Of a DNA stretch of 18,036 nt, positions 1-18,036 are shown one piece after another. Both the position numbers and the translations under genes were made by a program. Location: positions 1 through 18,036 of IMG/VR virus record IMGVR_UViG_3300045988_022824, one strand, 5' to 3'. Source of the DNA: a virus. The first letter of the stretch is position 1; every line of letters starts with the position of its first letter. The notes below the pieces were generated by a model. The model ran no database searches. It was given only the letters and a program-made list of their open reading frames with translations, and was not told where the DNA came from.

Positions 1-207
1 GTTGTTGTTCTTTGTTCTTTGTTTTTTATCCTTGTTCTTGTTCTGTTTCTTGTTGTCGTCCTTGTTGTTTTGTTTTTTGTTGCGTTCTTTTCTGTTGTCG
101 GTTTTGTGTGTTGTTGTGTTTTATGTTTTTTGGTGTGTTGTTTTGTTCATGGTTTGAGTGTGTTGTTTTTTGTGTTGTTGGGTGTGTTGTGTTTTGTGGT
201 GTGGTAT
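1..207. repeat. Left inverted terminal repeat (207 bp, perfect)
   Basis: I reverse-complemented 17830..18036 block by block and it matches 1..207 at every base. The first mismatch is at 208, with a patchy imperfect extension to about 227. By my count the top strand has only 5 A and 15 C in 207 nt. It begins GTTGTTGTT. Confidence 0.95.
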
Positions 208-210
208 TAT
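202..210 (+). promoter_or_regulatory. Candidate extended -10 promoter element (TGgTATTAT) reading inward from the left ITR edge
   Basis: TG at 202-203 and TATTAT at 205-210 straddle the ITR boundary, about 30 nt upstream of the first plus-strand ORF. A mirrored TGgTATGAT sits at the right end. No good -35 was seen. Confidence 0.35.
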
Positions 211-238
211 GTGGTTGTCAGCCAAGGGACAAGAAAGG

Positions 239-484: not shown

Positions 485-490
485 TTGAAA

Positions 491-760: not shown

Positions 761-797
761 GGTTGATATCTGGTTAGGGGTTTGGGTTAAGATATAG

Positions 798-833: not shown

Positions 834-856
834 GAGTCTCAATTCTCAAGTGGTAA

Positions 857-1957: not shown

Positions 1958-1960
1958 TGC

Positions 1961-2332
1961 CTAACTCTCCTTACCGTTGTTTTCTTTTTCGTCGATGTTG
2001 AAGATGTTGAGAATATTCGAGCTGGATAGTTCGGGGTTGATTTTCACGCAGTTTTCGATGATTGATGTGATTTCAGTCAGACAAATGCCTGCGCAAGCGG
2101 GAATGAATACGGGTAGTTCGATTCCAAGATTGATGTATTCTGAACCGTATTCTACGATTAACGCAACGCAAATCACTACCAGATACGTGAACTTGTGGCC
2201 GAGTCCCTCCCTCATTTTCCTGCTGGAAAGTTCGCCGTGCATGATTGCGTTGACTACTCCGGTGATGTAGTCAATCAGTCCCAATAAGAATACAATGCCG
2301 ATAACGATTAGCTCTTGGATTGACATGAACAT
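1961..2332 (-). CDS. Holin (Phage_holin_4_1-like)
   Basis: 123 aa with hydrophobic helices and the family-typical segment ITGVVNAIMHGELSSRKMREGLGHKFTYLVV. It sits immediately upstream of the endolysin. The stop is TAG at 1961-1963. Confidence 0.85.
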   Translation of the reverse strand: MFMSIQELIVIGIVFLLGLIDYITGVVNAIMHGELSSRKMREGLGHKFTYLVVICVALIVEYGSEYINLGIELPVFIPACAGICLTEITSIIENCVKINPELSSSNILNIFNIDEKENNGKES

Positions 2333-2335
2333 TCC

Positions 2336-3442: not shown

Positions 3443-3464
3443 TATGGCATGACATGCGGACTTT

Positions 3465-4682: not shown

Positions 4683-4692
4683 ACATACCAGT

Positions 4693-4720
4693 ATACCCCA
4701 CGGCGTCGGCCGTGGGGTAT
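4693..4720 (-). terminator. Perfect 12-bp stem-loop downstream of the fibre gene
   Basis: ATACCCCACGGC-GTCG-GCCGTGGGGTAT lies between the TAG at 4725 and the ATG at 4682. No clear U-tract follows on the minus strand, so it could be a factor-dependent or partial terminator, or an mRNA stabiliser. Confidence 0.5.
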
Positions 4721-4724
4721 GGTG

Positions 4725-5735: not shown

Positions 5736-5751
5736 TGTCATTCTCCCTTTG

Positions 5752-6120
5752 CTAGTTCTTGTTACCGACGCGGACGATGCCGTTCTCGTCCGCAAACATG
5801 TTGTCCAATTGCTTGGCGGTCAACCCCAATGTTCCCGGCTGGCTTGCGGTTTTCGGCGCTTTGCCGTCAATCTCGGTCTTGAGCGACTTCGCCGTGTTGG
5901 TATTGGTGAGGCCTCCCAGTTGCAGATATCGTTGGTCGGCCGCCGTCTGAGTGATGCCGGGGTTTTCGGCAACATGTTGGATGGCGTCGGCGTTCTTCTT
6001 CATCTGCCCGTCGATTTTAGCCATGTCCCCGTTATAGTCGCCGGACCATGTAGGCCGGTCGGTTTCCGCGAACTGGCTTAACTCGTAGTGTTCGGTGTGG
6101 TTGGTTGCGGTCATGGTCAC
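5752..6120 (-). CDS. Short fibre-like protein sharing the fibre N-terminal module
   Basis: GTG at 6120 overlaps the upstream TGA (GTGA), and ATG 6114 is an alternative. The N-terminus MTMTATNHTEHYELSQFAETDRPTWSGDYNGDMAKIDGQM parallels MTMSTTQHTGHYNLPTFGDNPNDRPSWRGDFTDAMTAIDNQM of the next gene. Confidence 0.6.
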   Translation of the reverse strand: MTMTATNHTEHYELSQFAETDRPTWSGDYNGDMAKIDGQMKKNADAIQHVAENPGITQTAADQRYLQLGGLTNTNTAKSLKTEIDGKAPKTASQPGTLGLTAKQLDNMFADENGIVRVGNKN

Positions 6121-6755
6121 ACCCCGCTGGTCTCGAAGTTCGATACGGTCGGATTACGTTCAACATAGCGCGCGTCCGCCTCGGATTGCGTGATAAACGC
6201 CATGTCCGCCACGGGATTCTCCGGCATACTCTTACCGTAGGGGAATTGGGAGCGGCCCGGAAAATCACCGGGCACGCAATTATCCACGGCGGTGGCCTTC
6301 AAGTCATATTCGCGTGCCTTAAGCGACAACCCGTCATACTCCTGCGCGGTCAACTGCATGTTATCGTAATCACCCCAGAACAGTCCATGATTACGCGCAT
6401 TATCGTACATGCCGCCGAGTACATCCCCAAGCGGTTGTACGGTGCCGTACACCGGGGAGGTTGCCGCGCCCTGCTGTTCCATCCGATGAATCAGTTCAAG
6501 CATTTCCGAGCGTAGGTCGTTCATGGACTTGTTGACTTGCGCCACGGTATCCGCAAGAGCCTTGTCCACGGATACCGCAAGGTCGCTGGTGACTCCCTCC
6601 AGCCTGCTCAAATCGCATTGGAGGGTATCGAGATTATGACGTAGACATTCAATCAACTGCAACGTAGTCAATCCGTCCCGATACGTGAACGGCACGGACG
6701 TGGGCACTCCGTCGTACAGGCGTTGCCGTGGAATCAGCGCGTTAATGGCAACCAT
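6117..6755 (-). CDS. Tail/appendage structural protein (coiled-coil, function unassigned)
   Basis: ATG at 6755 (MVAINALIP...) has GGGAG 5 nt upstream, inside the end of the preceding gene. The stop is TGA at 6117-6119. A central heptad-like helical region is present (LDTLQCDLSRLEGVTSDLAVSVDKALADTVAQVNKSMNDLRSEMLELIHRME). It lies between the lower collar and the fibres. Confidence 0.6.
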   Translation of the reverse strand: MVAINALIPRQRLYDGVPTSVPFTYRDGLTTLQLIECLRHNLDTLQCDLSRLEGVTSDLAVSVDKALADTVAQVNKSMNDLRSEMLELIHRMEQQGAATSPVYGTVQPLGDVLGGMYDNARNHGLFWGDYDNMQLTAQEYDGLSLKAREYDLKATAVDNCVPGDFPGRSQFPYGKSMPENPVADMAFITQSEADARYVERNPTVSNFETSGV

Positions 6756-6757
6756 GA

Positions 6758-7552
6758 TTACTCCCATTCTCCATAATTATAGCAGTTACTGAAAATAGTA
6801 TCATACGACCCCCACACCTGCATGAAACACGGTTCGAGACTCCTCACGACTTCCATGTCCACGTTGATAATCGCCTGCCGGTACTCCTGTATCAGACTCA
6901 CGGCGCTCTGACTACGCCCGGTCACATGACTCCTGCCCTTGGAATTGCTTGAATCATGCTGGTAGTCGGTCGCGCTTTGCGCCGTGGTGTGGCTGGTTGA
7001 ATCCTGCGAACTGGACGCGGTGCCGGAACTGTCCGCCTGCGACTCGTTGGCATGGCTGGCGTAGCGGGAAAAATCGCCTTGCACGCCGGTCTGCGGCACG
7101 TCGCTATCGAAACTTCTCGACGTGGTGGTGCTGGAATTATCCGACTTGCTGGTGCTGTTGCTGGTGGAATCCTGCGTACTGGACGCCTTGCCCGACGACT
7201 GGGATTCACTGCCGTTCTCGCTGTCCGTCGTCATGTCCATAGAGTCCAGCGGGTTATATTCCATGTCCAATGTCCGATAGCGCTCATTGAAATACGGCAT
7301 GATTTCCGCCATAGTCATACCCAAGTAGAAGACGAACATCTGCGCGGTTTCCTGACCAATCTCCCTCAGCGCATAATGTCGGATGATTTTCTCATTCAAC
7401 TCCGCGCGGTGGTTCTCATCGTGAATCGGGTAATAGTCTGCGCTGAGATGTAGTTTAGTGTCCGTGTCGTAGCCCATGTTAATGAGGTTGCCGAGGGTTT
7501 CGGTGTACTCCCCCGGCGTTGTCATTGCATAGGCGCTGAAGTCCTGTGTCAC
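6758..7552 (-). CDS. Lower collar protein (phi29 gp11-like) with an S/T-rich C-terminal half
   Basis: The segment YPIHDENHRAELNEKIIRHYALREIGQETAQMFVFYLGMTMAEIMPYFNERYRTL matches the pattern I remember for Picovirinae lower collar proteins. It lies directly downstream of the portal gene. GTG at 7552 overlaps the portal TGA (GTGA), and ATG 7525 is an alternative. Confidence 0.7.
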   Translation of the reverse strand: MTQDFSAYAMTTPGEYTETLGNLINMGYDTDTKLHLSADYYPIHDENHRAELNEKIIRHYALREIGQETAQMFVFYLGMTMAEIMPYFNERYRTLDMEYNPLDSMDMTTDSENGSESQSSGKASSTQDSTSNSTSKSDNSSTTTSRSFDSDVPQTGVQGDFSRYASHANESQADSSGTASSSQDSTSHTTAQSATDYQHDSSNSKGRSHVTGRSQSAVSLIQEYRQAIINVDMEVVRSLEPCFMQVWGSYDTIFSNCYNYGEWE

Positions 7553-8499
7553 AACACACCTCCGATACCCGCATCATATGAGGCGGGCATGTCAATATCA
7601 GTAGTACCGCCGGCGCTGGAATCAAGCGCGTTGGGCACGCCGGAGCTTTGCGCGTCCGCATACTCAACCCAGATGTTCAATTGCGGCCACAATCGGTTAA
7701 TCTCGGTCGCCGCCGCCTGCCGTGCCTTAAGAAAACTCAACCGGAACACGTCCGTTTTCTCATTAGCCTGCGCCACCTCATCGGAAATAAGCCGTTCCTT
7801 TTTCTCGGTGCCGCTGGACTGGATGCCGAGATACCCCAGTACCTCGTTGGTCACTTGGGTTTTCTGCTGGATGAACTTGTCCAACAGATACGGCGTCGTG
7901 TTGGGCCACGGCTGGAACATGCTACCGGGGTCGAGCGAGACGTAGCCTATGATATAATCCTGACCATCCTGTCGCTGTTGCAACATGTTCTGCACGGTGA
8001 GCTTGGTGCGTGGGTCGGCGGTGATGATGGTCGGCAGTTTCAGACTCTCCAAGTTCACGTCATACGCCTTGTCGATATCCGCCAAGCGTCGCGCGTACTG
8101 CCATAGGATATCCTTGAAACTCATGCGCATACGATTATCCCAAATCGGGATGCACTCGCGGCCCGCCTTGAGTTGCTTGTAATGATAGTTGACGCCAACC
8201 GGCTCAAATGAGGTAGGATTATTGTACACGTTCAACCGGCCTTGATATCCGGCTTGTGTCACGAGGAACCTGCCGATACGCTTGTCCTCGAAGAACAACG
8301 CGCACCCGTATTCACAGAGACACATTTCCAACCATCGTTCATCCACGGTGGGCGGCAACCCCCGCCAACTGAACCGGTTCAACGCCAGTTCCGCCAGCAA
8401 ATGATAGTACATTGCATCAAGGTCGGCGGCGCGCGTTTTCGCGTAATTGCCACGCGGATGCAACGCGCCCCCGACCCTGTTTTTTCTAGACCTGCTCAT
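7549..8499 (-). CDS. Portal / upper collar connector protein (phi29 gp10-like)
   Basis: Colinear with remembered phi29 gp10: basic N-terminus MSRSRKNR; FSWRGLPPTVDERWLE versus FEWENLPPTINPSFLE; GTEKKERLISDEVAQANE versus LEKKERMVTDEVSSNDE. Similar length (316 aa). Confidence 0.9.
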   Translation of the reverse strand: MSRSRKNRVGGALHPRGNYAKTRAADLDAMYYHLLAELALNRFSWRGLPPTVDERWLEMCLCEYGCALFFEDKRIGRFLVTQAGYQGRLNVYNNPTSFEPVGVNYHYKQLKAGRECIPIWDNRMRMSFKDILWQYARRLADIDKAYDVNLESLKLPTIITADPRTKLTVQNMLQQRQDGQDYIIGYVSLDPGSMFQPWPNTTPYLLDKFIQQKTQVTNEVLGYLGIQSSGTEKKERLISDEVAQANEKTDVFRLSFLKARQAAATEINRLWPQLNIWVEYADAQSSGVPNALDSSAGGTTDIDMPASYDAGIGGVL

Positions 8500-8511
8500 A
8501 CTACCATCATA

Positions 8512-10839
8512 TCACTCATAGCTGATGCCCGGCAGTGGCTCATTATCCGCCCAGTCGGTCACACCAATATACTCGGGCTTGCTCCATACGGTCACACCCC
8601 GCTCGAACATGCCCTTGATAGTCAAGCGGTATTCCTCCGGCAGAGTGCCCCTCACATAAGCCCCCTGCATCTGCCAAAAAGTGAATTTCTCCATGCATTC
8701 CAACGAGGCGGGCGGGGTAATGAAACGTTGGACAAAATACCCATAGCGTAGCATGTACTCGCCTGCGGCCCTCAGAGCACTGGGGGCGCACGTCTTGAAC
8801 CTGACCAACACGCCCATGATGCCATTGCTCAGGTTGAACATGTCACCACCGAGCGCGCCCGAAGTGGTTGGCGGCGTCAACTGCATTTGCTGGACTTGCG
8901 CGTTGATTCCCGCAATGGCGTTCTGGTAGTCGCCTTGTGCGGCGTAGGCGGCCAGACCGTAATTGGCCTGTGAGGTGATGGCATTGAGTTGGTTGCCCAA
9001 TGCGGTTGCGCCGCTTGCATAGGCGTTCGCCTGTGAGGTTGATGCCGTATTGGTGGCAATCTGATTCGCCGTACTGGCCGCGGCGGTCGAGTTTGAAATC
9101 GCCGCCGAGGAATTGATGCCGTGGTTGGCTATGTCCATTTGCGCGGTGCCGAGGAACGCGCCGCCGATGGCGTTCGCCACCCCCAGCGGGTTACGAGAGG
9201 CAATGGCGTTCAGGCTGCCGCCGATGGCTCCCGCCATGCCATTGAGATTGTTGCTGCTGATGTTCTGCTGCACCTGCAAACCGGCCATCTGACTGGTTCG
9301 GTCCTGACTGATGGCAAGGGACTGGTTCAACGAGTTTGCCGCAATCGCATTGCTGGCGGTGCGGTTCTCGTTGCCCAAGTTGGTTTGCCGTGCGGCGTAT
9401 TCGCGTTGCCACATTGCGTTTGAATTGGCGACATCCGCGGACGCCAATGCTTTTTGTCGTGTCCATTGCGCGGATTCCTGAGCGTAGGCGCGGGTGTATG
9501 CACTGTTCGCCATAGCCAATGCGCCGCCGTTGTTGACAACGCTGAAATGAGGGAGGTTGGTGACGCCGAAGCTTGCGTTAAGCATTTCACCGCCGTCAAT
9601 CGGCAGACCACACCCCTGATTGTTGATTTGGAGTGGGGTCAGCGTGTCCGCTCCGGCCTCATTGTATCCGGGGATGTAGAAATTGATTCGTGTACCGGAC
9701 GGGGCATAGGTGTATGTTTCCCTGATAGTGAGGTTATCTGACTGGATATCCTCCGGTCGATAGTTGACTGTCGTGCCGTTGAGGCAACTGCATTCCACGA
9801 CGCAATAGGGATAGCAACGGAGTTTACGGAGGTTGCGGTAGCGTTGCGGGATATTGAAAAGACTTCTGAAATTGTCTACCGTCATGATATCCTCGTAACG
9901 CATGTCCGAGTCCACGCCGCTTTGGAAACCATAGACTCGTCCATGTTGCGCGTCAACCGACTGGCCGTAGATTTGTGTTACCTCCTGACCATAGCGGTTG
10001 ATGTAATCCTGTGGGATTTTCGGCACCATGTACACGGCGCAACTGCCTTGGGTAATCCACGGGTATGATGTGCCAGCCGCCATGATGTTCCATACGTAAC
10101 TCATTCGGGAGTCACAATAGTAGACATTGCATCCATCCGTCGCACCCTCGAATATGCTGCCCGTCGCCGTACTCAAATCGGGTTTCGACTCACTGCCGGG
10201 GGATTTGGTCAAATCCGTGGTGCTTACGATGATAACGCCATAATCAACCCAATTCAATCCACCATGCACGGTGTCCAAATGCTCCCCGGATATGATGGAA
10301 TGATACCGTTGCGCCGTCGTCACCATTTCACTGCCGGTGTCCAGACCCTCCGGCAGTGCCAGATAGGTGCGCCCGTAACCATTCCACTGGCGTTCATTGG
10401 CCACACCGATGTGACCACGGGTCACATAGCAACTGCCGAACGTGACATCATGCTGGAAACTCTGCCACACGTCCAGCATCAAAACCAGTTGCGTGCAATG
10501 GGCGTTGACGTATTCGACGCGCTGGATGAAGTAATACCATGCGCGCGGCCCCTCCAACCCGGGGTAATCATTGTAGGCCACCAGATAATTCCAGTTCGAC
10601 GCCTCATTAAATGGGAGTTCGACGCGGGCGGGCGCGTTGAAAATATGCATGGTGGCCGGACGGCATTCCACGCCATCCAGCTTGTCAAACCATTGTTCTT
10701 GTGTTTCACGTGAAACAAACCGCACTACATCCCGGTAGGATGCATCCCACGGGACACGGCAGAGTTTCAACGTGGTGTTTGGCGTCCATTCTGCCCATGA
10801 AAAATTAGCTTCTACGTAGGGGTTTGCGTCGTCAATCAT
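8512..10839 (-). CDS. Tail knob / distal tail tube protein (phi29 gp9-like)
   Basis: Track ORF 8512..10947 was trimmed to ATG 10839 (MIDDANPY...). GGAGG lies 7 nt upstream, and ATG 10845 is an alternative. The N-terminus LCRVPWDASYRDVVRFVSRETQEQWF resembles the gp9-type start. It sits between capsid and portal as in phi29. A long A/N/S/Q/G-rich insert spans about 8870..9510. Confidence 0.8.
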   Translation of the reverse strand: MIDDANPYVEANFSWAEWTPNTTLKLCRVPWDASYRDVVRFVSRETQEQWFDKLDGVECRPATMHIFNAPARVELPFNEASNWNYLVAYNDYPGLEGPRAWYYFIQRVEYVNAHCTQLVLMLDVWQSFQHDVTFGSCYVTRGHIGVANERQWNGYGRTYLALPEGLDTGSEMVTTAQRYHSIISGEHLDTVHGGLNWVDYGVIIVSTTDLTKSPGSESKPDLSTATGSIFEGATDGCNVYYCDSRMSYVWNIMAAGTSYPWITQGSCAVYMVPKIPQDYINRYGQEVTQIYGQSVDAQHGRVYGFQSGVDSDMRYEDIMTVDNFRSLFNIPQRYRNLRKLRCYPYCVVECSCLNGTTVNYRPEDIQSDNLTIRETYTYAPSGTRINFYIPGYNEAGADTLTPLQINNQGCGLPIDGGEMLNASFGVTNLPHFSVVNNGGALAMANSAYTRAYAQESAQWTRQKALASADVANSNAMWQREYAARQTNLGNENRTASNAIAANSLNQSLAISQDRTSQMAGLQVQQNISSNNLNGMAGAIGGSLNAIASRNPLGVANAIGGAFLGTAQMDIANHGINSSAAISNSTAAASTANQIATNTASTSQANAYASGATALGNQLNAITSQANYGLAAYAAQGDYQNAIAGINAQVQQMQLTPPTTSGALGGDMFNLSNGIMGVLVRFKTCAPSALRAAGEYMLRYGYFVQRFITPPASLECMEKFTFWQMQGAYVRGTLPEEYRLTIKGMFERGVTVWSKPEYIGVTDWADNEPLPGISYE
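10702..10717. repeat. Perfect 16-bp palindrome TGTTTCACGTGAAACA (copy 1 of 3 of the core GTTTCACGTGAAAC)
   Basis: Read directly from the sequence. It lies inside the tail knob gene, where it encodes F-V-S-R-E-T on the minus strand. Confidence 0.95.
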
Positions 10840-10858
10840 TGTCATGCCTCCGGTACGG

Positions 10859-10899
10859 CAAGGCCCGGAGCGCTCACGTGGGTTGCGCTCCGGGCCTTG
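10859..10899 (-). terminator. Perfect 15-bp stem-loop just downstream of the capsid gene (possible partial terminator or mRNA stabiliser)
   Basis: CAAGGCCCGGAGCGC-TCACGTGGGTT-GCGCTCCGGGCCTTG. A second 8-9-bp hairpin (GAGAGAGT...ACTCTCTC) lies at about 10916..10946. No U-tract is present. It lies between the capsid stop (10952) and the tail knob start. Confidence 0.5.
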
Positions 10900-10951
10900 T
10901 ATTGCATCTCGCCGTGAGAGAGAGTAGCCAACCGGCCACTCTCTCATTATA

Positions 10952-12067
10952 TCACGCGGTCACGGTCACATTCTTCCTGCCGGATACGCCAAACAGCGTG
11001 GCGGTGATATCAGACGTGCCCTGCTTGACACCCTCGACGACACCCGACTCGGACACTGTGGCGTTGGCCGGGGTGCCGGACGTCCATGCGGCTTGCGCGG
11101 TCACGTCGGCGGTTCGCCCGTCAATCATGGTCGCCGTAGCGGTCGCCTGCGCCGTATGACCCGTGGCCACATTCGAGACGTTGACGGCAATCGATGCGAT
11201 AATCGACGGATTAAATCCGATAACACCCTCGCCAACCACCGGCACGTCCAAGGCGGCGGACACGGTGCCCGGCACCTCCGGTGTCGCCGGATTCGTGTAT
11301 AGGGCGGTCGCCGTCACCGGGATAGTGGTGTTCGGTTCGTCGAGACCGACGACCAGCACGCCGGTGGGTGAAATATACGTGTAATCACTCTTCGGCTTAA
11401 CGGTGTCTCCGATGGCGTACTCAACCGCATTCGACCGGAACGTAGCCGTGCCATCGTTGGAGATGGTCGTATCGGCAGTGACCTGCACCGCACCGCCACG
11501 CGCCACGTCCGACGGCGTGGTCGTGCCACCGCCGTACATGGTGAGCTTAAGTTCAAAGGTCGGCGTCTTGGCCGTCGTTCCGGTCGGTGCCGCCATCTTG
11601 GCGGTGGAGCCCGCTCCGGTCCAGAACATGACGGCGGGGGCGAAGCCGGACACGCTGATGATGTGCTGGACGTGCAGGTAATGGTTGACCGAGTTGATGT
11701 TCACCGGGTTGGTCTGCTGGGTCATCTCATTGATAACGGGAATATCAATGAGGAATTTGTCGGTGGTGAGGATGGCTTGCACGCCGTCCATGCCGAACCT
11801 GTCTTGTGGGATTACGATAATCCGGTCGATGGTCGGTTCCGCGTCCGTACGCTGGAACACGGTCGCGAGGCCCTGCACGTCAAGCGCGGACTTGACTTCA
11901 GGGGAGCAGAACAGTACGAGTTCGTCCGGGCGGGCGAACGTCGGCATGTGACGCGCGTTATACCGGGTGGATACGAATTTCAGCGTGTCCGCCCATGCTC
12001 GAATCTGGCGCAACATGTCGCGGGCGTCGGTTTCCGTCGAACCCATGTCGTTAAGGTCATGGTTCAT
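10952..12067 (-). CDS. Major capsid protein, C-terminal portion (phi29 gp8-like HK97-fold part plus C-terminal Big_2-type Ig-like domain)
   Basis: Colinear with the second half of remembered phi29 gp8 (e.g. HYLHVQHIISVSGFAPAVMF versus YYHVWQTLSVSRFANAVAF). The C-terminus VTAQAAWTSGTPANATVSESGVVEGVKQGTSDITATLFGVSGRKNVTVT is Big_2-like. This ORF is in the same frame as track ORF 12077..12382, separated only by a TAG and three codons. Confidence 0.85.
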   Translation of the reverse strand: MNHDLNDMGSTETDARDMLRQIRAWADTLKFVSTRYNARHMPTFARPDELVLFCSPEVKSALDVQGLATVFQRTDAEPTIDRIIVIPQDRFGMDGVQAILTTDKFLIDIPVINEMTQQTNPVNINSVNHYLHVQHIISVSGFAPAVMFWTGAGSTAKMAAPTGTTAKTPTFELKLTMYGGGTTTPSDVARGGAVQVTADTTISNDGTATFRSNAVEYAIGDTVKPKSDYTYISPTGVLVVGLDEPNTTIPVTATALYTNPATPEVPGTVSAALDVPVVGEGVIGFNPSIIASIAVNVSNVATGHTAQATATATMIDGRTADVTAQAAWTSGTPANATVSESGVVEGVKQGTSDITATLFGVSGRKNVTVTA

Positions 12068-12681
12068 ATGGACACGCTAGTAGCCGCCCAGCTTAGCATA
12101 CTCGACGAACTGGTGGCACATGGCCTCGAACAAGTCAACCTCGGCCGCATTGTAACAGGAGGTGAGAATCTGGGAGGTGAGCGAGGCCAGACCGTTTTCT
12201 GAGGTGAACGCGCGTTGTAGTGTCTTGTCGTCCGTGGTGGCGGGGTAGAAGTGGGCGAAGTCAAGACGGTGGTAGAGCTGTCCACGTCGATTTTCCACTT
12301 GCGGAAATTGTCCGCGCCCAAGTATTCCGCGTCGGGGTCGTACACCTGTGCGAGCGGCATACCTACGGCGATTTCCTGCCACGTATCACCATACGTCTGA
12401 GAGGCACGCTGGAACACGCCAAGAGGGTTGTTCCAACGCCATGTGTTCACGTAGGTGCCGCCGATACGGTTCACTAGCGCCGAGTAAAACTCGTTCTTCA
12501 ACTGGGTGGACGACATGAGGGTGGCCATCTGCCTGTCCATGTTCATTTGGGTGGCCGAGGGCATACGCCTCTGATATTCGGGGGATGCCTCGTTGCGAAT
12601 CATGTTGAGAATCTGCGCGTTGTTGAATTCGGTGAGCGGGCGCAACTGCTGTTTTGGCGTCACTACTGGAGTGGTTGGCAT
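12064..12681 (-). CDS. Major capsid protein, N-terminal portion (frame is lost after about codon 130)
   Basis: ATG at 12681 has AGGAAGGAA 8 nt upstream. The first ~130 aa align with the phi29 gp8 N-terminus (NMIRNEASPEYQRRMP..., NEFYSALVNRIGGTYVNTWRWNNPLGVF). After ...NFRKWK the translation turns into P/S/T/R-rich junk, while the homologous sequence continues in the -1 frame (track ORF 12077..12382: ENRRGQLYHRLDFAHFYP...YNAAEVDLFEAM...). Confidence 0.85.
   Translation of the reverse strand: MPTTPVVTPKQQLRPLTEFNNAQILNMIRNEASPEYQRRMPSATQMNMDRQMATLMSSTQLKNEFYSALVNRIGGTYVNTWRWNNPLGVFQRASQTYGDTWQEIAVGMPLAQVYDPDAEYLGADNFRKWKIDVDSSTTVLTSPTSTPPPRTTRHYNARSPQKTVWPRSPPRFSPPVTMRPRLTCSRPCATSSSSMLSWAATSVSI
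12077..12079 (-). other. In-frame TAG (amber) codon inside the capsid reading frame
   Basis: Minus-strand reading: ...GGC GGC TAC TAG CGT GTC CAT ATG AAC..., i.e. ...LGGY*RVHMNHDL..., with capsid homology on both sides. Confidence 0.9.
12291..12294 (-). other. Frame-change point in the capsid gene (A4 run in the mRNA sense)
   Basis: The minus-strand sequence AAG TGG AAA ATC GAC (frame A) has to become ...GAA AAT CGA CGT GGA CAG (frame B). One extra A in the run would give KWKNRRGQLYH and make the whole 10952..12681 span a multiple of three. Confidence 0.8.
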
Positions 12682-12703
12682 GATAATTATTCCTTCCTAA
12701 TCA

Positions 12704-13045
12704 CTAGTCTTCAAATAGGTCGTCGAACGTGGAATAGGTGCCGTTGTAGTCGTCGTCGGTCATTTCCGTGGCGTCCGGCCCCTCGTCGCCGTCCGGGCCG
12801 TCGTTCAGCACGTGGTCTGCGGCGGCGTCGCGCATTGCCTCAATGGTTTTGGATAGTTCCGCCACGGTCGCTTCCAAAGCGCTGAGACGGTTGGCCATGT
12901 CGGCGTCCTTGTCGTCGCCCGCATCCTCCGGTTCGGTGTCGTCCTGCGTTTCAGGCTCCGGGTTCGGCGTATTGTCGTCGGCGGTCGCGTCCGGTTCAAC
13001 GTCGGGCGTGGTGTCCGGCTTGTCGTCGGTTTCTGTGTCGTCCAT
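12704..13045 (-). CDS. Acidic helical protein, putative scaffolding protein (phi29 gp7 position)
   Basis: ATG at 13045 has AAGGGG 5 nt upstream (the track ORF starts at GTG 13051). The protein is 113 aa and extremely D/E/T-rich, with a central amphipathic helix (ANRLSALEATVAELSKTIEAMRDAAADH). It lies immediately upstream of the capsid gene. The stop is TAG followed by TGA. Confidence 0.55.
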   Translation of the reverse strand: MDDTETDDKPDTTPDVEPDATADDNTPNPEPETQDDTEPEDAGDDKDADMANRLSALEATVAELSKTIEAMRDAAADHVLNDGPDGDEGPDATEMTDDDYNGTYSTFDDLFED

Positions 13046-13051
13046 ATTCAC

Positions 13052-13093
13052 CCCTTAAAGGAAAAGGCACGGCGTCAATCACGACGCCGTGCC
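13052..13093 (-). terminator. Intrinsic terminator-like hairpin plus U-tract at the end of the replication module
   Basis: On the minus strand: GGCACGGCGTC-GTGATT-GACGCCGTGCC followed by TTTTCCTTT. The stem is a perfect 11 bp. The U-tract runs straight into the AAGGGG ribosome-binding site of the next gene. Confidence 0.65.
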
Positions 13094-13231
13094 GGATTGC
13101 TAGGCTGTGCGGGTTCCCTCGCCGTCGCTGGGCGCTGGCTACGCACGTCTACATCCGACCGAACCGCCTTACCGATTGCCTTACGGTCGGGCCACCGAAT
13201 CGACTTGGGACGCACACCCCGCTGTTAGTTA

Positions 13232-14692
13232 TTATAGCACGAAACTATGGCCGTCATCATTGAGATGGCGTGACCCCGGCAGAAACTCATCATAGGGGAT
13301 GGGGGCGGCACGATGCACGCCACTCAAACGCATTACCGTATCGCCACTCGTTTCCACACCGCAATATTTGCGATTGCCGAGAATACGGAGCCTCTCATAG
13401 GTGTGGTCGTTTTTCCACGCGCCTAGTTTCCGGTCATCCGTTTCGATTCCCATAGGCGCGTCCAGCCCCTCCAATATCATGCCGTCGGTATCGGCATAGA
13501 GCACGCGCCCGGCGTTCGCGTTCATGGCGCGGGATAGTATTTGCCGACCGTAGGCGTTTACATAAGCGGCGGTCGGCAACCACGCCAGACTGTTGGCCGA
13601 CTCGGGCTTGTCCACGGTAAAATCAACGCCCCCGTCCGCCGATGGTTTCGGATGCAACATGGGCCGGTAGAGCGAGGCCCCGAATTTCCCCACCAGCGAG
13701 TTCAACAACAGTTTCGCCATCTGCTTGCGCTCCCCGGTGGCGGTTTGTTTCACGTGAAACCATTTGTCCACGTATGAGTAGTAGAGTCCATGTGATTTGC
13801 GGAACTTCCAACCGCCGATATGCTCCCACACGTGGATATCGTAGTTTTCGGTCAGCGTTTCCAAGTCCACATCGGTGACTGGCATAGTGACGACGCCAAG
13901 CGTACTATCCAAGCGTTCACCCTCATACCCCCACACGGGTAGGATGTTAGTGAGCGTCGCCGTTTTCCCCGCTTTCAATCTTGCGTCAAACGCCATGACA
14001 TCGATATGGAGCGGATAATCAGAGTCGTGGTGATACTCCCCGTCATACCATATGGGTGAGCCTGTCGGCATGGGGGCGTCTCGCATGATACTCGGGTAGA
14101 GACTGTTCACGTCCCAACTCCTGCAATCCCGATATTCGCCCGGCTTGCTGTACACTATCGCCCCATAGTAGGCGGGACGCATCCGATGGTAAACCTCTTT
14201 ATCCAATGGCGGGAAATGCCGTCTGAACCCGGCGTAATCCCCGTCGATATAATCGGTCATTGCCATAGACGCTATGGTCGTGCCCTTGAGGTGCAGTGCG
14301 GCGCATTCCTGCGCGATATTCCACGTGGTTTCCAAATCATCCGCACCGCCAAATGTTTCACGTGAAACATCCAGTCCGTCATCACGCGTGACATTACGCA
14401 CGTCCAGAAAATCCACGGTGATGCCGCCCATGCGCACACGAAAACTATAGAAGTTGCCGCGAATGTTGAACGTGCCCCACACGCCGTCCTTGGCCGGGTT
14501 TGACTGCAAGGGGAGTCGTGTCAACAGTTCGGCGGCTATGGGCTTGATATCCTGCCATCCGTGGGCGCACCATACTCTCGTATGATGGTCAAGCATGGTG
14601 AGACGTATGATGGCGTTTGCCGTCAATGGTTCCGCGCCGTCATCCGTCAATAGTGTTGCGCCGTCTGTTGCCGCCGTCCGACGCTCTTTCAT
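13232..14692 (-). CDS. Protein-primed family-B DNA polymerase (phi29 gp2-like), short form
   Basis: Motif A is WDVNSLYPS, motif B is KLLLNSLVGKFG and motif C is LYADTDG. Strongly colinear with remembered phi29 DNAP in the TPR1, palm and TPR2 regions (DYPLHIDVMAFDARLKAG versus DYPLHIQHIRCEFELKEG; VDKWFHVKQTATGERKQMAKLLLNSL versus IDKWTYIKTTSEGAIKQLAKLMLNSL). It is only 486 aa, against about 575 for phi29. AAGGA lies 7 nt upstream of the ATG. Confidence 0.95.
   Translation of the reverse strand: MKERRTAATDGATLLTDDGAEPLTANAIIRLTMLDHHTRVWCAHGWQDIKPIAAELLTRLPLQSNPAKDGVWGTFNIRGNFYSFRVRMGGITVDFLDVRNVTRDDGLDVSRETFGGADDLETTWNIAQECAALHLKGTTIASMAMTDYIDGDYAGFRRHFPPLDKEVYHRMRPAYYGAIVYSKPGEYRDCRSWDVNSLYPSIMRDAPMPTGSPIWYDGEYHHDSDYPLHIDVMAFDARLKAGKTATLTNILPVWGYEGERLDSTLGVVTMPVTDVDLETLTENYDIHVWEHIGGWKFRKSHGLYYSYVDKWFHVKQTATGERKQMAKLLLNSLVGKFGASLYRPMLHPKPSADGGVDFTVDKPESANSLAWLPTAAYVNAYGRQILSRAMNANAGRVLYADTDGMILEGLDAPMGIETDDRKLGAWKNDHTYERLRILGNRKYCGVETSGDTVMRLSGVHRAAPIPYDEFLPGSRHLNDDGHSFVL
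13747..13760. repeat. Perfect 14-bp palindrome GTTTCACGTGAAAC (copy 2 of 3)
   Basis: Read directly from the sequence. It lies inside the polymerase gene, where it is read as W-F-H-V-K-Q, a different frame from copies 1 and 3. Confidence 0.95.
14353..14370. repeat. Perfect 18-bp palindrome ATGTTTCACGTGAAACAT (copy 3 of 3)
   Basis: Read directly from the sequence. It lies inside the polymerase gene (N-terminal domain), where it encodes D-V-S-R-E-T-F. Confidence 0.95.
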
Positions 14693-14704
14693 GATTCCAT
14701 CCTT

Positions 14705-15649
14705 TTAGTGTCGTGCCGCGCTGGTCATCCATTCATCAAGTCGTGTCTCTACATCTCCCGCATCCGCCTTGGTCTCCCATTTATGTGTCTTATCATTATA
14801 CCATGCGGCTTCACGTACCACGGTGCTGAAATTCGTGTTGTTTATCAGCCATCGTTTTTGACGGTTCGACAAAGACGCGAATCTTTGGGAGATGCTGGAG
14901 TCAAACGCTTCAAGTTGCTGTTCGACCCTATCAAAATCCGCAACCCCCTCGCTCTCGGGAATCTTTCCAGCACCTGCATGTAATGGCGCTCGACCTATAA
15001 GCCCGGCGTATTCGAGTATCTCCCGTTCAAGTTTCCTCCTACCTCCCTCTCGTATCATCGTACGCGCGTGGCTTATGCCACGCTCCGAGCCGAACACGTT
15101 AGCCCGAGTGCGTGTGAGTTCGTCACGCGCCGAACCGCCAACCGTATGAGTACCCAACACATCGAACGGCGACTCTCCAGCGCGTTCCATCTCACGCACT
15201 TCGGCTACGGTATAGCGGGCCAAGGTCAACGCCTCGAACTGTTGGGCGCGTTTGATTTTTCGCCGTGCCTCGATACGGCGGCGCTGTTGCTGTCGTAATG
15301 TTTTCCGACGTTTCGGCGGGGCGGCGGCGATTTCCGCGTCGGTAATCAACGGACGCGCCGCCAGTTCCCTATCGAGTTTCGTAATATGCACATCCGGGAC
15401 AACCTGATACGGCTCGTTATCCCGCGCCCTCAAGGCTTGCTGTTGTTCCCCAAACTCCCGTCCGACACGGCGTGCTACCTGTTCGAGTTGCTGGGCGCTG
15501 AGTTTTCCTAGGAACGTTTCGGTGATTTGCTTGGGGAGACGTCCAGTACTGTAATCTCTGACCGCTTGCTCTCGGCGTACCTGTGCCGACCTGATGGCGG
15601 CGTTGCGTTTCAGGTTGTTGGCGCGTCGATTGTTTTTACGTTTTGCCAC
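14705..15649 (-). CDS. Putative terminal protein (priming protein; phi29 gp3 position)
   Basis: It lies immediately upstream of, and is nearly contiguous with, the polymerase gene, as in phi29-like phages. The N-terminus is highly basic (MAKRKNNRRANNLKRNAAIR), there are Arg/Lys-rich internal stretches, and the length is 314 aa. GTG at 15649 has AAGGAGAG 8 nt upstream. The call rests on synteny and composition, not on recognised sequence similarity. Confidence 0.6.
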   Translation of the reverse strand: MAKRKNNRRANNLKRNAAIRSAQVRREQAVRDYSTGRLPKQITETFLGKLSAQQLEQVARRVGREFGEQQQALRARDNEPYQVVPDVHITKLDRELAARPLITDAEIAAAPPKRRKTLRQQQRRRIEARRKIKRAQQFEALTLARYTVAEVREMERAGESPFDVLGTHTVGGSARDELTRTRANVFGSERGISHARTMIREGGRRKLEREILEYAGLIGRAPLHAGAGKIPESEGVADFDRVEQQLEAFDSSISQRFASLSNRQKRWLINNTNFSTVVREAAWYNDKTHKWETKADAGDVETRLDEWMTSAARH

Positions 15650-15677
15650 GGCCCTATCTCTCCTTGCGAGTATGAAA

Positions 15678-15715
15678 CACCCCCCGCCGCCAGGATGGAA
15701 AAACGGCGAGGGGTG
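15678..15715 (-). terminator. Imperfect stem-loop between the SSB-like and terminal-protein genes
   Basis: CACCCCCCGCCG ... CGGCGAGGGGTG (12 bp with one mismatch, 14-nt loop). Only a weak U-tract (TTTCAT) follows on the minus strand. It could be an attenuator or a stabiliser. Confidence 0.35.
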
Positions 15716-15730
15716 AGTTTGGCGGCAACA

Positions 15731-15742
15731 TCCCTATAGGGA
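15731..15742. promoter_or_regulatory. 12-bp perfect palindrome TCCCTATAGGGA (possible operator)
   Basis: It lies in an intergenic region, starting 2 nt downstream of a candidate -10 hexamer on the minus strand. A related CCCCTATAAGG lies upstream of the SSB-like gene, near 16229..16239. Confidence 0.3.
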
Positions 15743-15743
15743 C

Positions 15744-15772
15744 ATTACAATACTATCATACGGTGCGGACAA
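15744..15772 (-). promoter_or_regulatory. Candidate sigma70-type promoter for the terminal protein / polymerase genes
   Basis: Minus strand: TTGTCC (15767-15772), a 17-nt spacer, then TGTAAT (15744-15749). This is pattern matching only. Confidence 0.3.
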
Positions 15773-15777
15773 TTAGC

Positions 15778-16215
15778 TTACTTGCGGTCTTTTTCCGACA
15801 CAAGTTCAAGGTCGAAAAACTTATAGCCACGGCGACTCTTCTTCTCAACCACCTTAAGCACAAGAGGATGGTCCCACGTGTCCGGCGTGCCGAAAATGGC
15901 GAACAGATTACCAAAAGCGTGCGCCAACGTGGGCGAGGCGGCGGCAAAGTCACCTTCCTCAGCGTGGATAACAACGCGGGTGGAGGAGTTGATTTCACCC
16001 GTCTCTTGATTGGCTACCTCGATGGCCTGCGCCAGCACATTAGTGACATGCAGTGGTTCATTGAGATGTTCATCAACCTTATCGGAGGTCTGCATGGCGT
16101 TATACAACGCCATTTTACCATCCATAGTGTCAGTGTTGAAGAAATGGGACACGGCGTTAGCACCGTTAGCCGCAAAATTGTTGCCGTTTGCTACGGTGAG
16201 TTCGTTGTCAGCCAT
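15778..16215 (-). CDS. Putative phage single-stranded DNA-binding protein (lactococcal-phage SSB-like family)
   Basis: 145 aa. The layout ...LHVTNVLAQAIEVANQETGEINSSTRVVIHAEEGDFAAASPTLAHAFGNLFAIFGTPDTWDHPLVLKVVEKKSRRGYKFFDLELV matches my recollection of the small phage SSB family found in Firmicute phages. Its position upstream of TP and DNAP parallels phi29 gp5. AAGGAAAGG lies upstream of the ATG. Confidence 0.5.
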   Translation of the reverse strand: MADNELTVANGNNFAANGANAVSHFFNTDTMDGKMALYNAMQTSDKVDEHLNEPLHVTNVLAQAIEVANQETGEINSSTRVVIHAEEGDFAAASPTLAHAFGNLFAIFGTPDTWDHPLVLKVVEKKSRRGYKFFDLELVSEKDRK

Positions 16216-16245
16216 GATTATTGTTGCCTTTCCTTATAGGGGTTA

Positions 16246-16560
16246 TTAATTATTTTCCTCGGAGATGATATCATCTTCAACCACGTTGCCGTTAACCGAC
16301 CCCGGATAGTCGATAATGGTATCATCCCCAAACTCACAATTAGCCCAATAGATAGCCTCATCCATGCGCGTAATCTGCGCATGATACTCGGCGGACATGG
16401 GGAGCATGTCCTTGTTAATCTTGCGGGCTTTTTTCATTGCCATGTCAGCCGCGCGACACGCGCCATCCACGACTACTTCGGCGTCCACGAGTTCCCCGTT
16501 TTCGCCGCGCGTAACACCGCGCACAATACTATAATGCTTAGCTCGCTTAATATATGCCAT
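16246..16560 (-). CDS. Hypothetical early protein with an acidic C-terminal tail
   Basis: Track ORF 16246..16566. The ATG at 16560 (MAYIKRAK...) has AAGGCGG 7 nt upstream, whereas the first ATG is only 1 nt from it. No family recognised. Confidence 0.55.
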   Translation of the reverse strand: MAYIKRAKHYSIVRGVTRGENGELVDAEVVVDGACRAADMAMKKARKINKDMLPMSAEYHAQITRMDEAIYWANCEFGDDTIIDYPGSVNGNVVEDDIISEENN

Positions 16561-16577
16561 AATCATACCGCCTTATT

Positions 16578-17087
16578 TCAATGTTGCTGTTTCCGTGACA
16601 TTCTTGCAATGTCCTCATCAGTATACCGTGCATCAGTCAGATTGTCAAAACAGAGACACGCAATTTTGATGATAGTCTGAGCGAACCCATCACACTCCCA
16701 CGTCTTGCACATCTCATAACATGACGCGCCCTTGACATGACAGACAGCACACCACGCCACCATAGCCGGACAGTAAATAAGCCCGGACAACATTTCAATG
16801 TCCTGAGTTCGTGATAATGCGGCGTACATCGACGAACTAGGCAAAATACTCAGACAAACGTCCGCCGCATGTTCGATACTATCAGCAAACGCCACCTGAC
16901 CACCCTGAGGCTTATAAAAGCCCTTAAGCAGTGCCACAGCACGGCAAAACGTTTCCCAATCACCCTCACCACGATTATATTCACGCAAGCGCAGATTACG
17001 CCGACGACCACGAACAACACGGCGCACACGGTCATCATCCAGCACGCCATCATCAAACCAATTCGTGCGGTCATCACTACTCTTCAT
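16578..17087 (-). CDS. Hypothetical early protein, cysteine-rich C-terminal half
   Basis: The track ORF starts at GTG 17096. ATG at 17087 (MKSSDDRTNW...) has GGAGAGG 8 nt upstream. The stop is TGA. There are many Cys residues (CPAMVAWCAVCHVKGASCYEMCKTWEC...IACLC). No family recognised. Confidence 0.55.
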   Translation of the reverse strand: MKSSDDRTNWFDDGVLDDDRVRRVVRGRRRNLRLREYNRGEGDWETFCRAVALLKGFYKPQGGQVAFADSIEHAADVCLSILPSSSMYAALSRTQDIEMLSGLIYCPAMVAWCAVCHVKGASCYEMCKTWECDGFAQTIIKIACLCFDNLTDARYTDEDIARMSRKQQH

Positions 17088-17089
17088 AA

Positions 17090-17332
17090 TCAACACCTCT
17101 CCACCAACAACGTATCAGCCAACGCCCTCGCATCAACCAGCATATGAGCCACCTGAGCATAATCACACGCATCAAACGTCACAGCCGACCAAACCAAACG
17201 ACGCCCGCCACTATCCTGAGACCGCACCGCATACCGCAGTTCATACGTCCGATTATGAGGACAATACACCAGACACACATCCCCAGACTCAAACTTGGAC
17301 GGGAACACGGACACAACCTCATCACTCGCCAT
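17090..17332 (-). CDS. Hypothetical small early protein
   Basis: This is the inner part of track ORF 17090..17596. ATG at 17332 (MASDEVVSVFPSKF...) is preceded by GGGGAGGAG about 10 nt upstream and overlaps the end of the upstream gene by 11 nt. The longer N-terminal extension is L/R/C/V-rich junk from the skewed composition. Confidence 0.5.
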   Translation of the reverse strand: MASDEVVSVFPSKFESGDVCLVYCPHNRTYELRYAVRSQDSGGRRLVWSAVTFDACDYAQVAHMLVDARALADTLLVERC

Positions 17333-17579
17333 CACACACACACTCCTCCCCGAAACACACCTCAACAACACCATACAAAAACCCCGCTTCAAAGTCAAAC
17401 GAAGAACAAGCAAAACCAATATACACACCAGACCCATAAAACACACAACGTACAACATCACGCACGCCATCCAACGCCTTCTTAACCGTATCCGCCGGAT
17501 ACGGGCCATACTTACACACATACGCGGGCGTGAGCTCAAACACCGTAAAATCATCAGGCGTAACAACAAAACACCACAT
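17322..17579 (-). CDS. Hypothetical small early protein
   Basis: This is the inner part of track ORF 17322..17648. ATG at 17579 (MWCFVVTPDDF...) has AGGGG 7 nt upstream. The coding strand is strongly G/T-rich. No family recognised. Confidence 0.5.
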   Translation of the reverse strand: MWCFVVTPDDFTVFELTPAYVCKYGPYPADTVKKALDGVRDVVRCVFYGSGVYIGFACSSFDFEAGFLYGVVEVCFGEECVCDGE

Positions 17580-17592
17580 TTGTTTACCCCTG

Positions 17593-17793
17593 TCACGCTT
17601 CTTCGAACGCTTCAATAAAATCATCATTCGGGAACGAATCGCAATCATTATAATCTTCGATAGTCATATTGTTAACCACCGCCACATAATGCAGATTCTC
17701 AACAATCACATCAATATCAAAATCGGCGAGTTGCTGACCACTATTCATAATGTAATCCTCGGCGTAATCCTTAATAATGCTATTGTTAATCAT
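17593..17793 (-). CDS. Small, very acidic early protein (first gene inward of the right ITR)
   Basis: A strong ribosome-binding site is present (AAGGAAGGAAG, then 6 nt, then ATG). The protein is 66 aa and very D/E/N-rich (…DFDIDVIVEN…EDYNDCDSFPNDDFIEAFEEA). The gene is locally AT-rich compared with its neighbours. No family recognised. Confidence 0.65.
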   Translation of the reverse strand: MINNSIIKDYAEDYIMNSGQQLADFDIDVIVENLHYVAVVNNMTIEDYNDCDSFPNDDFIEAFEEA

Positions 17794-17826
17794 TTTTTAC
17801 TTCCTTCCTTATCGGTTGATACTCAC

Positions 17827-17835
17827 ATCATACCA
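17827..17835 (-). promoter_or_regulatory. Candidate extended -10 promoter element (TGgTATGAT on the minus strand) reading inward from the right ITR edge
   Basis: It is the mirror image of the left-end element and straddles the ITR boundary, about 35 nt upstream of the ATG at 17793. Confidence 0.35.
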
Positions 17836-18036
17836 CACCACAAAACACAACACACCCAACAACACAAAAAACAACACACTCAAACCATGAACAAAACAAC
17901 ACACCAAAAAACATAAAACACAACAACACACAAAACCGACAACAGAAAAGAACGCAACAAAAAACAAAACAACAAGGACGACAACAAGAAACAGAACAAG
18001 AACAAGGATAAAAAACAAAGAACAAAGAACAACAAC
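17830..18036. repeat. Right inverted terminal repeat (207 bp, perfect)
   Basis: It is the exact reverse complement of 1..207, verified block by block. Confidence 0.95.

Follow-up and report, generated by a model that had tools for sequence, protein, structure and literature searches.

The 18,036-bp stretch of viral DNA analyzed here (IMG/VR record IMGVR_UViG_3300045988_022824, positions 1 to 18,036), which will be referred to as the window, carries on its minus strand an open reading frame (ORF) of 486 amino acids (aa) at 13232..14692 that encodes a protein-primed DNA polymerase of the phi29 type. The first 139 residues of this enzyme (14276..14692, minus strand), which correspond to residues 1-189 of phi29 DNA polymerase (DNAP), form a shortened and degenerate exonuclease-like domain, as judged by hhalign, by structure models and by the ratio of nonsynonymous to synonymous substitution rates (dN/dS). 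We consider it probable that this N-terminal domain (N-domain) is an exonuclease-dead or severely impaired scaffold that has been retained for structure. The picture of a miniaturised phi29-type polymerase, characteristic of Bifidobacterium podophages, in which the exonuclease-fold domain is catalytically decayed but selectively maintained, was partly confirmed by the sequence comparisons described below. An earlier reading made from the letters of the DNA only (the sequence-only reading) had proposed the loss of the exonuclease motifs in the region 14123-14692 (minus strand), which encodes residues 1-190 of the polymerase ORF.

The polymerase and its N-terminal domain

The ORF encodes the enzyme with which a Bifidobacterium podophage replicates its DNA, a protein-primed and strand-displacing polymerase. 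It matches the Pfam family DNA_pol_B_2 (PF03175) with an E value of 1.2e-35 (123.7 bits compared to a cut-off of 25.8) and, in a phmmer search, phi29 DNAP (1xhx) with an E value of 3e-44, whereby query residues 156-443 correspond to phi29 residues 207-500 in a near-continuous alignment that contains short gaps only and spans the TPR1 and TPR2 insertions. These single-sequence searches against Pfam and the PDB reached the polymerase half only and not the N-domain, for which profiles were needed; a profile search against phi29 DNAP aligned residues 4-478 to phi29 residues 6-552 with an E value of 6.8e-152. The AlphaFold2 (AF2) model of the polymerase showed a predicted local distance difference test score (pLDDT) of 91.4 and a predicted template modelling score (pTM) of 0.88, and the full-length model matched phi29 DNAP in Foldseek with a query-normalised template modelling score (TMq) of 0.83 and an E value of about 1e-39. 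As the sequence-only reading had noted, the polymerase motifs A, B and C are all clearly present, with the catalytic Asp residues intact. Motif A (DVNSLYP, aa 194-200, 14093..14113) contains the catalytic Asp194 and the steric-gate Tyr199, motif B (KLLLNSLVGKF, aa 327-337, 13682..13714) contains Lys327 and Asn331, and motif C (YADTDG, aa 399-404, 13481..13498) contains Asp401 and Asp403, all encoded on the minus strand. A TPR2-like beta-hairpin insertion at aa 342-364 (13601..13669, minus strand) aligns to phi29 residues 398-420 and is modelled with strands at 345-350 and 356-361. Judging from its sequence context, the start codon of the polymerase gene is secure: an AAGGA ribosome-binding site lies ahead of it, the upstream ORF ends at a distance of 12 nucleotides (nt), and the length of 486 aa is shared by more than 80 relatives.

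When 25 N-domains of the clade to which the window polymerase belongs were compared with 76 canonical exonuclease domains, hhalign yielded 98.3% in local mode, with an E value of 1.6e-14 over 131 columns, and 98.9% in global mode. The structural elements of the N-domain in the AF2 model follow the order b1-b2-b3-aA-b4-aB-b-b-b-a-a-aC, as expected for a DnaQ-like exonuclease fold, and a second AF2 model of residues 1-160, which was based on clade sequences only, showed the same secondary structure with a pLDDT of 91. Foldseek analysis of the isolated domain against the predicted viral structures of BFVD returned almost exclusively protein-primed polymerases as top matches (TMq 0.5-0.64, probability of at least 0.97), including those of BadAztec1, Sulfolobus ellipsoid virus 1, a tectivirus and Mycoplasma phage P1. 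By these profile and model comparisons, the N-domain is a clear homologue, by descent, of the DEDDy 3'-5' exonuclease domain found in phi29-type polymerases. It comprises 139 residues compared to 189 in phi29, counted to Thr139 and its phi29 equivalent Thr189, and the Asp of motif A is found at position 194 compared to 249. The N-terminal part had been described as about 90 aa shorter than in phi29; the actual shortening amounts to approximately 50-55 aa, and 89 aa is the difference between the whole proteins.

The exonuclease site of phi29 DNAP is formed by the carboxylates Asp12, Glu14, Asp66 and Asp169, together with Tyr165, which orients the attacking water, and Lys143 of the Kx2h motif (PMC4974454). 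Residues of the window polymerase were mapped to phi29 by a MAFFT alignment with relatives and phi29, by a HMMER profile against the phi29 PDB sequence and by hhalign in local and global mode. At phi29 positions 12, 14, 15, 62, 65, 66, 122, 123, 143, 165 and 169, the window polymerase reads D-A-T-H-Q-D-V-R-gap-gap-D. ExoI is represented by the remnant TDGAT (aa 9-13, 14654..14668, minus strand), for which HMMER, MAFFT and global hhalign agree that Asp10 corresponds to Asp12, Ala12 to Glu14 and Thr13 to Thr15; the DxE motif has kept its Asp and lost its Glu. In the ExoII remnant CAHGWQDIK (aa 42-50, 14543..14569, minus strand), Asp48 corresponds to Asp66 and is located in the first turn of a helix (46-59) in the AF2 model. 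Phe65 is lost, and the place of Asn62 is taken by either His44 or Gly45 according to the alignment used, leaving of the Nx2-3(F/Y)D motif the Asp without its Asn and aromatic residue. The ExoIII remnant GGADDLETTWNIAQECAA (aa 115-132, 14297..14350, minus strand), with the core GGADDLETT (aa 115-123), provides Asp119 as the equivalent of Asp169, and residues 119-132 form a helix in the AF2 model. Just upstream of ExoIII, a deletion of 5 + 22 residues (27 in total) removes the segment from Lys143 to Tyr165, and with it the Tyr of the Yx3D motif and the Kx2h lysine. Furthermore, Ser122 and Leu123 are replaced by Val and Arg, respectively. Glu121 was also considered as the equivalent of Asp169 and was rejected, as the hydrophobic pattern and the gapless distance to the invariant Thr139/Thr189, 20 residues in each protein, speak for Asp119.

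How unusual these exchanges are became apparent from a sample of relatives comprising 173 representatives (50% clustering, from a search with 10,566 hits), to which seven polymerases of cultured phages were added. Among the 120 polymerases of the canonical class, defined by D-E-D-D at the four carboxylate positions, Asn62, Lys143 and Tyr165 are each found in 120/120, Ser122 in 115/120 and Thr15 in 112/120. Because the ExoI Glu, the ExoIII Tyr, the Kx2h Lys and the ligands of single-stranded DNA (ssDNA) are lost in the window polymerase, we infer that its proofreading would be abolished or cut by orders of magnitude.

None of the canonical strings DxE, Nx2-3(F/Y)D and Yx3D occurs here, just as the sequence-only reading had stated, but the positions at which it had looked for them require correction. 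RVWCAHGW, which it had anchored on phi29 RVWAYGY, was placed on the ExoII strand (phi29 DLYFHNLKFD) by HMMER, MAFFT and hhalign, and PPLDKEV is offset by four residues from the phi29 LDKEV with which it had been equated. Because both anchors were coincidental and wrong, the three strings reported as exonuclease motifs were mislocated, the true ones being TDGAT, CAHGWQDIK and GGADDLETT. Likewise, the distance between ExoII and ExoIII is 71 residues compared to 103 in phi29, and not about 45 compared to about 100. The claim that the catalytic residues are lost holds for the equivalents of Glu14, Tyr165, Lys143, Asn62, Phe65, Ser122 and Leu123, but it fails at three of the four metal-ligand positions, which carry Asp. 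The possibility that a proper alignment would place carboxylates at ExoI-III, for example via the DDLETT segment, had been named as evidence to the contrary, and the profile alignment indeed placed Asp10, Asp48 and Asp119 there, contradicting the claim in part.

The N-domain is as well conserved as the remainder of the protein, with an identity among 84 close relatives of 0.903 for residues 1-155 compared to 0.897 for the rest. In a codon alignment of the window and five metagenomic relatives, dN/dS was 0.107 for residues 1-139 compared to 0.079 for residues 140-486, at a synonymous rate (dS) of about 1. Measured by these ratios, the N-domain is under strong purifying selection and is not decaying as a whole. 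Polymerase codons 1-23 (14624-14692) showed a dS of 0.23 among relatives compared to about 1.0 in the rest of the gene, albeit in a small sample, which hints at an overlapping constraint at the nucleic acid level at the 5' end of the gene.

Distribution among relatives and the exchange in motif B

By polymerase sequence, BP1, BD811P1-3 and the BadAztec group, all podophages of Bifidobacterium, are the closest cultured relatives, with 34-37% identity. Metagenomic data contain more than 80 clusters of polymerases that are 87-95% identical, almost all with exactly 486 aa, on contigs of 16-19 kb; one of them carries the label of a Bifidobacterium breve metagenome-assembled genome. In a neighbour-joining tree of the polymerase domain, approximately 29 representatives form one block, the short clade, which includes BadAztec1 (469 aa), BP1 (471 aa) and BD811P2 and is joined by a sister clade of 526-aa polymerases. 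The deletion from Lys143 to Tyr165 is common to the whole short clade and the 526-aa sister clade, and the ExoI Glu is absent from 28/29 members of the short clade, P0125 being the one that keeps it. The Asp positions differ: none is kept in BadAztec1, BP1 and BD811P2, only that of ExoI in the 526-aa clade and three in the sub-clade of the window. As far as can be judged from this distribution, the degeneration of the exonuclease site is a clade trait and not a private lesion. It is consistent with a single ancestral loss of activity, after which constraint on the active site was relaxed, because the deletion is common to the clades while the remaining Asp positions have decayed differently. 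The full canonical exonuclease set is found in other small podophages of actinobacteria, Eggerthella and Clostridium, namely Curie, Thatch, LE1-1 and CI130P1.

Degenerate exonuclease sites were detected in about 50 of about 175 sampled representatives, distributed over several lineages. Besides the clades described above, at least six further scattered lineages are exo-degenerate in this sample, for which the tree is rough and some cases may represent mis-predicted starts. Natural exo-degenerate protein-primed family B polymerases (pPolBs) are, by this count, less rare than the sequence-only reading had assumed when calling an exonuclease-dead version unusual. The trait extends over the clade, cultured members included, and occurs in several lineages. 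In the literature searched, exonuclease degeneration in the polymerases of Bifidobacterium or other phi29-like phages is not described, and as search coverage was incomplete this does not prove novelty. A review of phi29-like phages that includes Badaztecvirus discusses the exonuclease for phi29 only, and the polymerases of BadAztec1, BP1 and BD811P1-3 are not called exonuclease-deficient in the sequence records, the review or the literature searched. A paper from 2024 presents mavirus as the exception among pPolBs (PMC11161782).

Several details of the sampled relatives are worth recording. The 526-aa polymerases P0105, P0109, P0111, P0112, P0114 and P0146 read ADIDNST at ExoI and are without ExoII and ExoIII. 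The scattered exo-degenerate pPolBs, likewise metagenomic, comprise P0134, P0159, P0173, P0182, P0188, P0190, P0208, P0212, P0216, P0230, P0233, P0241, P0243, P0244, P0254 and P0265; among these, the lineage of P0182, P0216, P0190, P0254, P0241 and P0243 is exo-degenerate but has kept the motif B Tyr. P0202 is a near-canonical pPolB with an N-terminal part approximately 27 aa shorter than that of phi29 and 10/11 exonuclease-site residues intact; its Glu14 equivalent is Ala (D-A-D-D), which puts its ExoI in the state seen in the window polymerase. Motif C reads NTD for DTD, with Asn at phi29 Asp456, in P0094, P0099, P0121-P0125, P0132, P0140, BP1 and BD811P2, which make up part of the short clade and include cultured phages, whereas the window polymerase keeps DTD.

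The exchange of the conserved motif B Tyr for Val, noticed already in the sequence-only reading, is real. Val334 occupies the position of phi29 Tyr390, Val is found in 81/84 close relatives, and the short clade carries Val, Ile, Thr or Ala at this position throughout. The Tyr is present in 110/120 canonical polymerases compared to 9/52 exo-degenerate ones (Fisher p about 5e-22, without phylogenetic correction). In the open state of phi29 DNAP, the insertion site is occupied by Tyr390 and Tyr254, and in RB69 the homologous change Tyr567Ala lowers base selectivity. The co-loss of the motif B Tyr suggests a coordinated relaxation of fidelity determinants, and loss of the exonuclease together with loss of this Tyr would be expected to result in a lower-fidelity replicase.

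Role of the retained domain

In phi29 DNAP, the exonuclease domain forms, together with TPR2, palm and fingers, a narrow tunnel for the downstream template by which the strands are forced apart; contacts to the downstream template are made by Tyr101 and Thr189, the linker of residues Gln183-Thr189 is packed against the Asp121-Lys125 loop, and mutants of the exonuclease metal ligands, for example D12A/D66A, are defective in strand displacement (PMC6351526). Across the mixed alignment of short and canonical polymerases, the only invariant columns of the N-domain are Tyr82, Asp97 and Thr139, which correspond to phi29 Tyr101, Asp121 and Thr189. Tyr82 (14447..14449), the equivalent of the tunnel contact to the downstream template, is Tyr or Phe in 25/29 clade members. 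Asp97-x-x-Asn100 (14393..14404) corresponds to the inter-domain loop Asp121-Lys124, with Asn100 found in 29/29 and Asp97 in 20/29 clade members. Thr139 (14276..14278), located in the linker between exonuclease and polymerase domains at the template tunnel, is present in 29/29 clade members and 120/120 canonical polymerases; all three sites are encoded on the minus strand.

Because these tunnel residues are conserved and have the described roles in phi29, we propose that the N-domain acts as a scaffold. The exonuclease domain has shrunk from 189 to 139 residues, with loss of catalytic and ssDNA-binding residues; it would have been kept as a brace between domains and as one wall of the downstream-template tunnel, which it would form, as in phi29, jointly with TPR2, palm and fingers. 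The tunnel would in turn provide helicase-free strand displacement and processivity. Asp10, Asp48 and Asp119 would most likely be kept for structural or strand-displacement reasons, and their positions at helix N-termini and in a beta-turn of the AF2 model may have aided this retention. The absence of proofreading and the exchange of Tyr for Val in the nascent base-pair pocket would finally yield a lower-fidelity replicase, which may be tolerable for an 18-kb genome.

Several observations weigh against an inactive scaffold. The ExoI alignment has low hhalign per-column confidence, and the methods disagree by one residue on the ExoII register. No significant PDB match was obtained with Foldseek for the isolated domain (best E value of 0.08, phi29 outside the top 50); the fold must therefore have diverged appreciably, and the evidence for it rests on the BFVD matches and the profile homology. 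Moreover, Asp is present at three of four metal-ligand positions. Asp10, Asp48 and Asp119 are invariant in the 84 close relatives, with GAT/GAC codon turnover at 48 and 119; only 5/19 acidic residues of the N-domain share this invariance (Asp10, 48, 94, 97 and 119), an enrichment for the three ligand positions (hypergeometric p about 0.01). Asp10 and Asp48 remain invariant down to 47% identity, together with His44-Gly45-Trp46, in a range (47-77% identity) in which only 17% of the N-domain columns are invariant. The invariance of Asp10 and Asp48 is suggestive of a metal-binding site under selection in this sub-lineage.

These observations might be explained by a weakened or re-wired 3'-5' exonuclease kept in this sub-lineage, in which Asp10, Asp48 and Asp119 bind at least one metal ion and in which another residue could substitute for Glu14 or Tyr165, for example His44, invariant in the sub-clade, or Glu121, which among the acidic residues of the ExoIII helix is the best conserved across the clade. 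We regard such an enzyme as unlikely, if worth serious attention, since the equivalents of Glu14, Tyr165, Lys143, Asn62, Phe65, Ser122 and Leu123 are all absent, other viable clade members are without any of the carboxylates, and Glu121, being two residues past Asp119 in the helix, faces elsewhere. In addition, the same carboxylates matter for strand displacement in phi29 (PMC6351526), which explains their retention without catalysis.

The strong selection on the N-domain would also be compatible with its repurposing for a function apart from the tunnel, for example as a docking surface for the candidate terminal protein of 314 aa encoded directly upstream. The clade-specific invariant residues Asn100 and Arg103, which stand in place of the canonical Lys124 and Pro127, point in this direction, as does the lack of detectable similarity between the candidate terminal protein and known ones. 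However, the tunnel residues Tyr101 and Thr189 are among the few that are kept between canonical enzymes and the clade. Furthermore, the phi29 terminal protein reportedly contacts mainly TPR1, thumb and TPR2. Repurposing thus appears quite improbable. An artefact, be it a wrongly called start, a faulty assembly or a pseudogene in decay, is hardly credible. The capsid gene of the same window is broken by a 1-nt deletion, but the polymerase ORF is intact, and both the upstream stop codon and the ribosome-binding site fix where it starts. The short architecture in more than 80 independent metagenomic clusters and three cultured phages, as well as the dN/dS of about 0.1, effectively refute this explanation.

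The proposed scaffold was further compared with known systems. Like phi29 DNAP (gp2; PDB 1XHX, 2PYJ), the window polymerase is a protein-primed family B enzyme with motifs A, B and C, both TPR1 and TPR2, the same overall fold and conserved equivalents of the tunnel residues Tyr101, Thr189 and Asp121; it differs in being 89 aa shorter overall, with a shorter thumb and C-terminus. BadAztec1 (Badaztecvirus), BP1 and BD811P1-3 share with it the clade, the short length (469-471 aa), the deletion from Lys143 to Tyr165, the gene order and the exchange of the motif B Tyr for Val or Ile, but they keep 0/4 carboxylate positions, whereas the window polymerase keeps three Asp, and some members of the group carry motif C NTD. 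In Pol alpha and in the Pol I enzymes of Taq and Bst, the exonuclease fold has been kept as a structural domain after loss of catalytic residues. Pol zeta contains an inactivated exonuclease domain (PMC7544198). All of these come from other subfamilies of PolB or PolA, start from RNA or DNA primers and lack strand displacement of the tunnel type. Natural loss of proofreading, with an exonuclease remnant or none, is also known from the pPolBs of mavirus and polinton-like viruses, for which the authors infer lower fidelity (PMC11161782). In contrast to the window polymerase, these enzymes of eukaryotic viruses have lost most of the domain and gained a helicase (S3H or a fused S1H), whereas the compact exonuclease fold is kept here and no helicase was detected.

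Genome context and implications

The window represents a complete linear genome with inverted terminal repeats, in which the large ORFs are all located on the minus strand. A megablast search of the whole window against phage records yielded no DNA-level match. The left (1..223) and right (17814..18036) inverted terminal repeats pair over 223 nt with 98% identity; the first 207 nt are perfect, and the five mismatches are all at positions 208-221. On the 5' strand, the repeats consist of 61% T, 28% G, 8% C and 3% A, and they hold many short internal repeats of the type TGTGTTGTT. Full terminal repeats are mostly absent from the contigs of the metagenomic relatives, and the inverted terminal repeat of phi29 has 6 nt compared to about 207 nt in the window.

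As in phi29, the polymerase gene is preceded by the genes for a protein that binds single-stranded DNA and for a candidate terminal protein. The phi29-type single-stranded DNA-binding protein is encoded at 15778..16215 (minus strand; PF17427, E value of 1e-14; phrog_6243), followed by the 314-aa ORF (14705..15649, minus strand), the polymerase gene, an ORF of 115 aa and the gene for the major capsid protein. Genes for the tail protein, the connector and further structural proteins come next, and then those for a CHAP-domain protein, a Gp16-type packaging ATPase, a holin and an amidase. The 314-aa ORF, inferred by synteny to be a candidate terminal protein, occupies the position that gene 3 has in phi29 and that the genes annotated for the terminal protein have in phages Curie and Thatch. 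Its product has a basic N-terminus and 32% identity to BadAztec1 gp16, and comparison with Pfam, PHROGs, the PDB and the terminal protein of phage Curie returned no match, to known terminal proteins or otherwise. A search of the other ORFs against Pfam, PHROGs and the PDB revealed neither a separate exonuclease nor a helicase. The ORF of the tail protein (8512-10947, minus strand) comprises 811 aa as listed compared to 749-775 aa in relatives, and its true start is probably located further downstream.

The sequence-only reading had suggested that a high mutation rate might account for the lesions in the capsid gene and for the extreme composition of the genome ends. The capsid lesion consists of a single 1-nt deletion at about position 12280, which splits the 576-aa gene (10952-12681, minus strand) into ORFs of 205 and 371 aa. 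It is absent from the three relatives compared, and a capsid gene of 575-576 aa is intact in all five fetched relatives (six contigs). The deletion may represent a sequencing or assembly error or a defective genome and does not speak for a raised mutation rate; a link to the polymerase is unsupported, as relatives with the same kind of polymerase have an intact capsid gene. The terminal composition, in turn, is a property of the inverted terminal repeat and no evidence of mutational load.

A further observation concerns a perfect 14-nt palindrome, GTTTCACGTGAAAC, which occurs three times in the window (10703-10716, 13747-13760 and 14355-14368), with 0 copies expected from 200 shuffles. Two copies are located in the polymerase gene in different frames, at codons 109-113 (VSRET) and codons 312-315 (FHVK), the one at 14355-14368 falling in the region of the sequence-only reading (14123-14692). 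The third is found near the start of the tail-protein ORF and may be just upstream of the true gene start or at the start. The relatives L009-L013 and L015 contain one to three exact copies and L014 only variants with two mismatches; the two polymerase sites occur at the same offsets in relatives despite a dS of about 1. In L009, L010 and L013, a further copy forms the apex of a hairpin that resembles a terminator and closely follows the capsid gene. Going by this recurrence, the palindrome is a DNA- or RNA-level motif.

Polymerases of the phi29 type are the textbook example of a small, high-fidelity, proofreading replicase, in which the exonuclease domain is mechanistically tied to strand displacement. 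If the N-domain of the window polymerase is indeed an inactive scaffold, evolution would have performed an experiment that separates the structural role of the exonuclease domain in the tunnel from its catalytic role, and the strand-displacement tunnel of phi29-type enzymes would work without an active exonuclease site. A natural compact strand-displacing enzyme of 470-490 aa without exonuclease would then also be available for amplification or sequencing chemistries, which currently rely on the engineered D12A/D66A mutant with its impaired strand displacement. Only tentatively do we suggest that a whole and abundant lineage of Bifidobacterium podophages from the human and bee gut is replicated by a naturally proofreading-free, miniaturised phi29-type polymerase that also carries a fidelity-relevant change in motif B. 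If so, double-stranded DNA phages with a constitutively raised mutation rate would be common in the gut, and with BadAztec1, BP1 and BD811P1-3 isolates of such phages would already exist.

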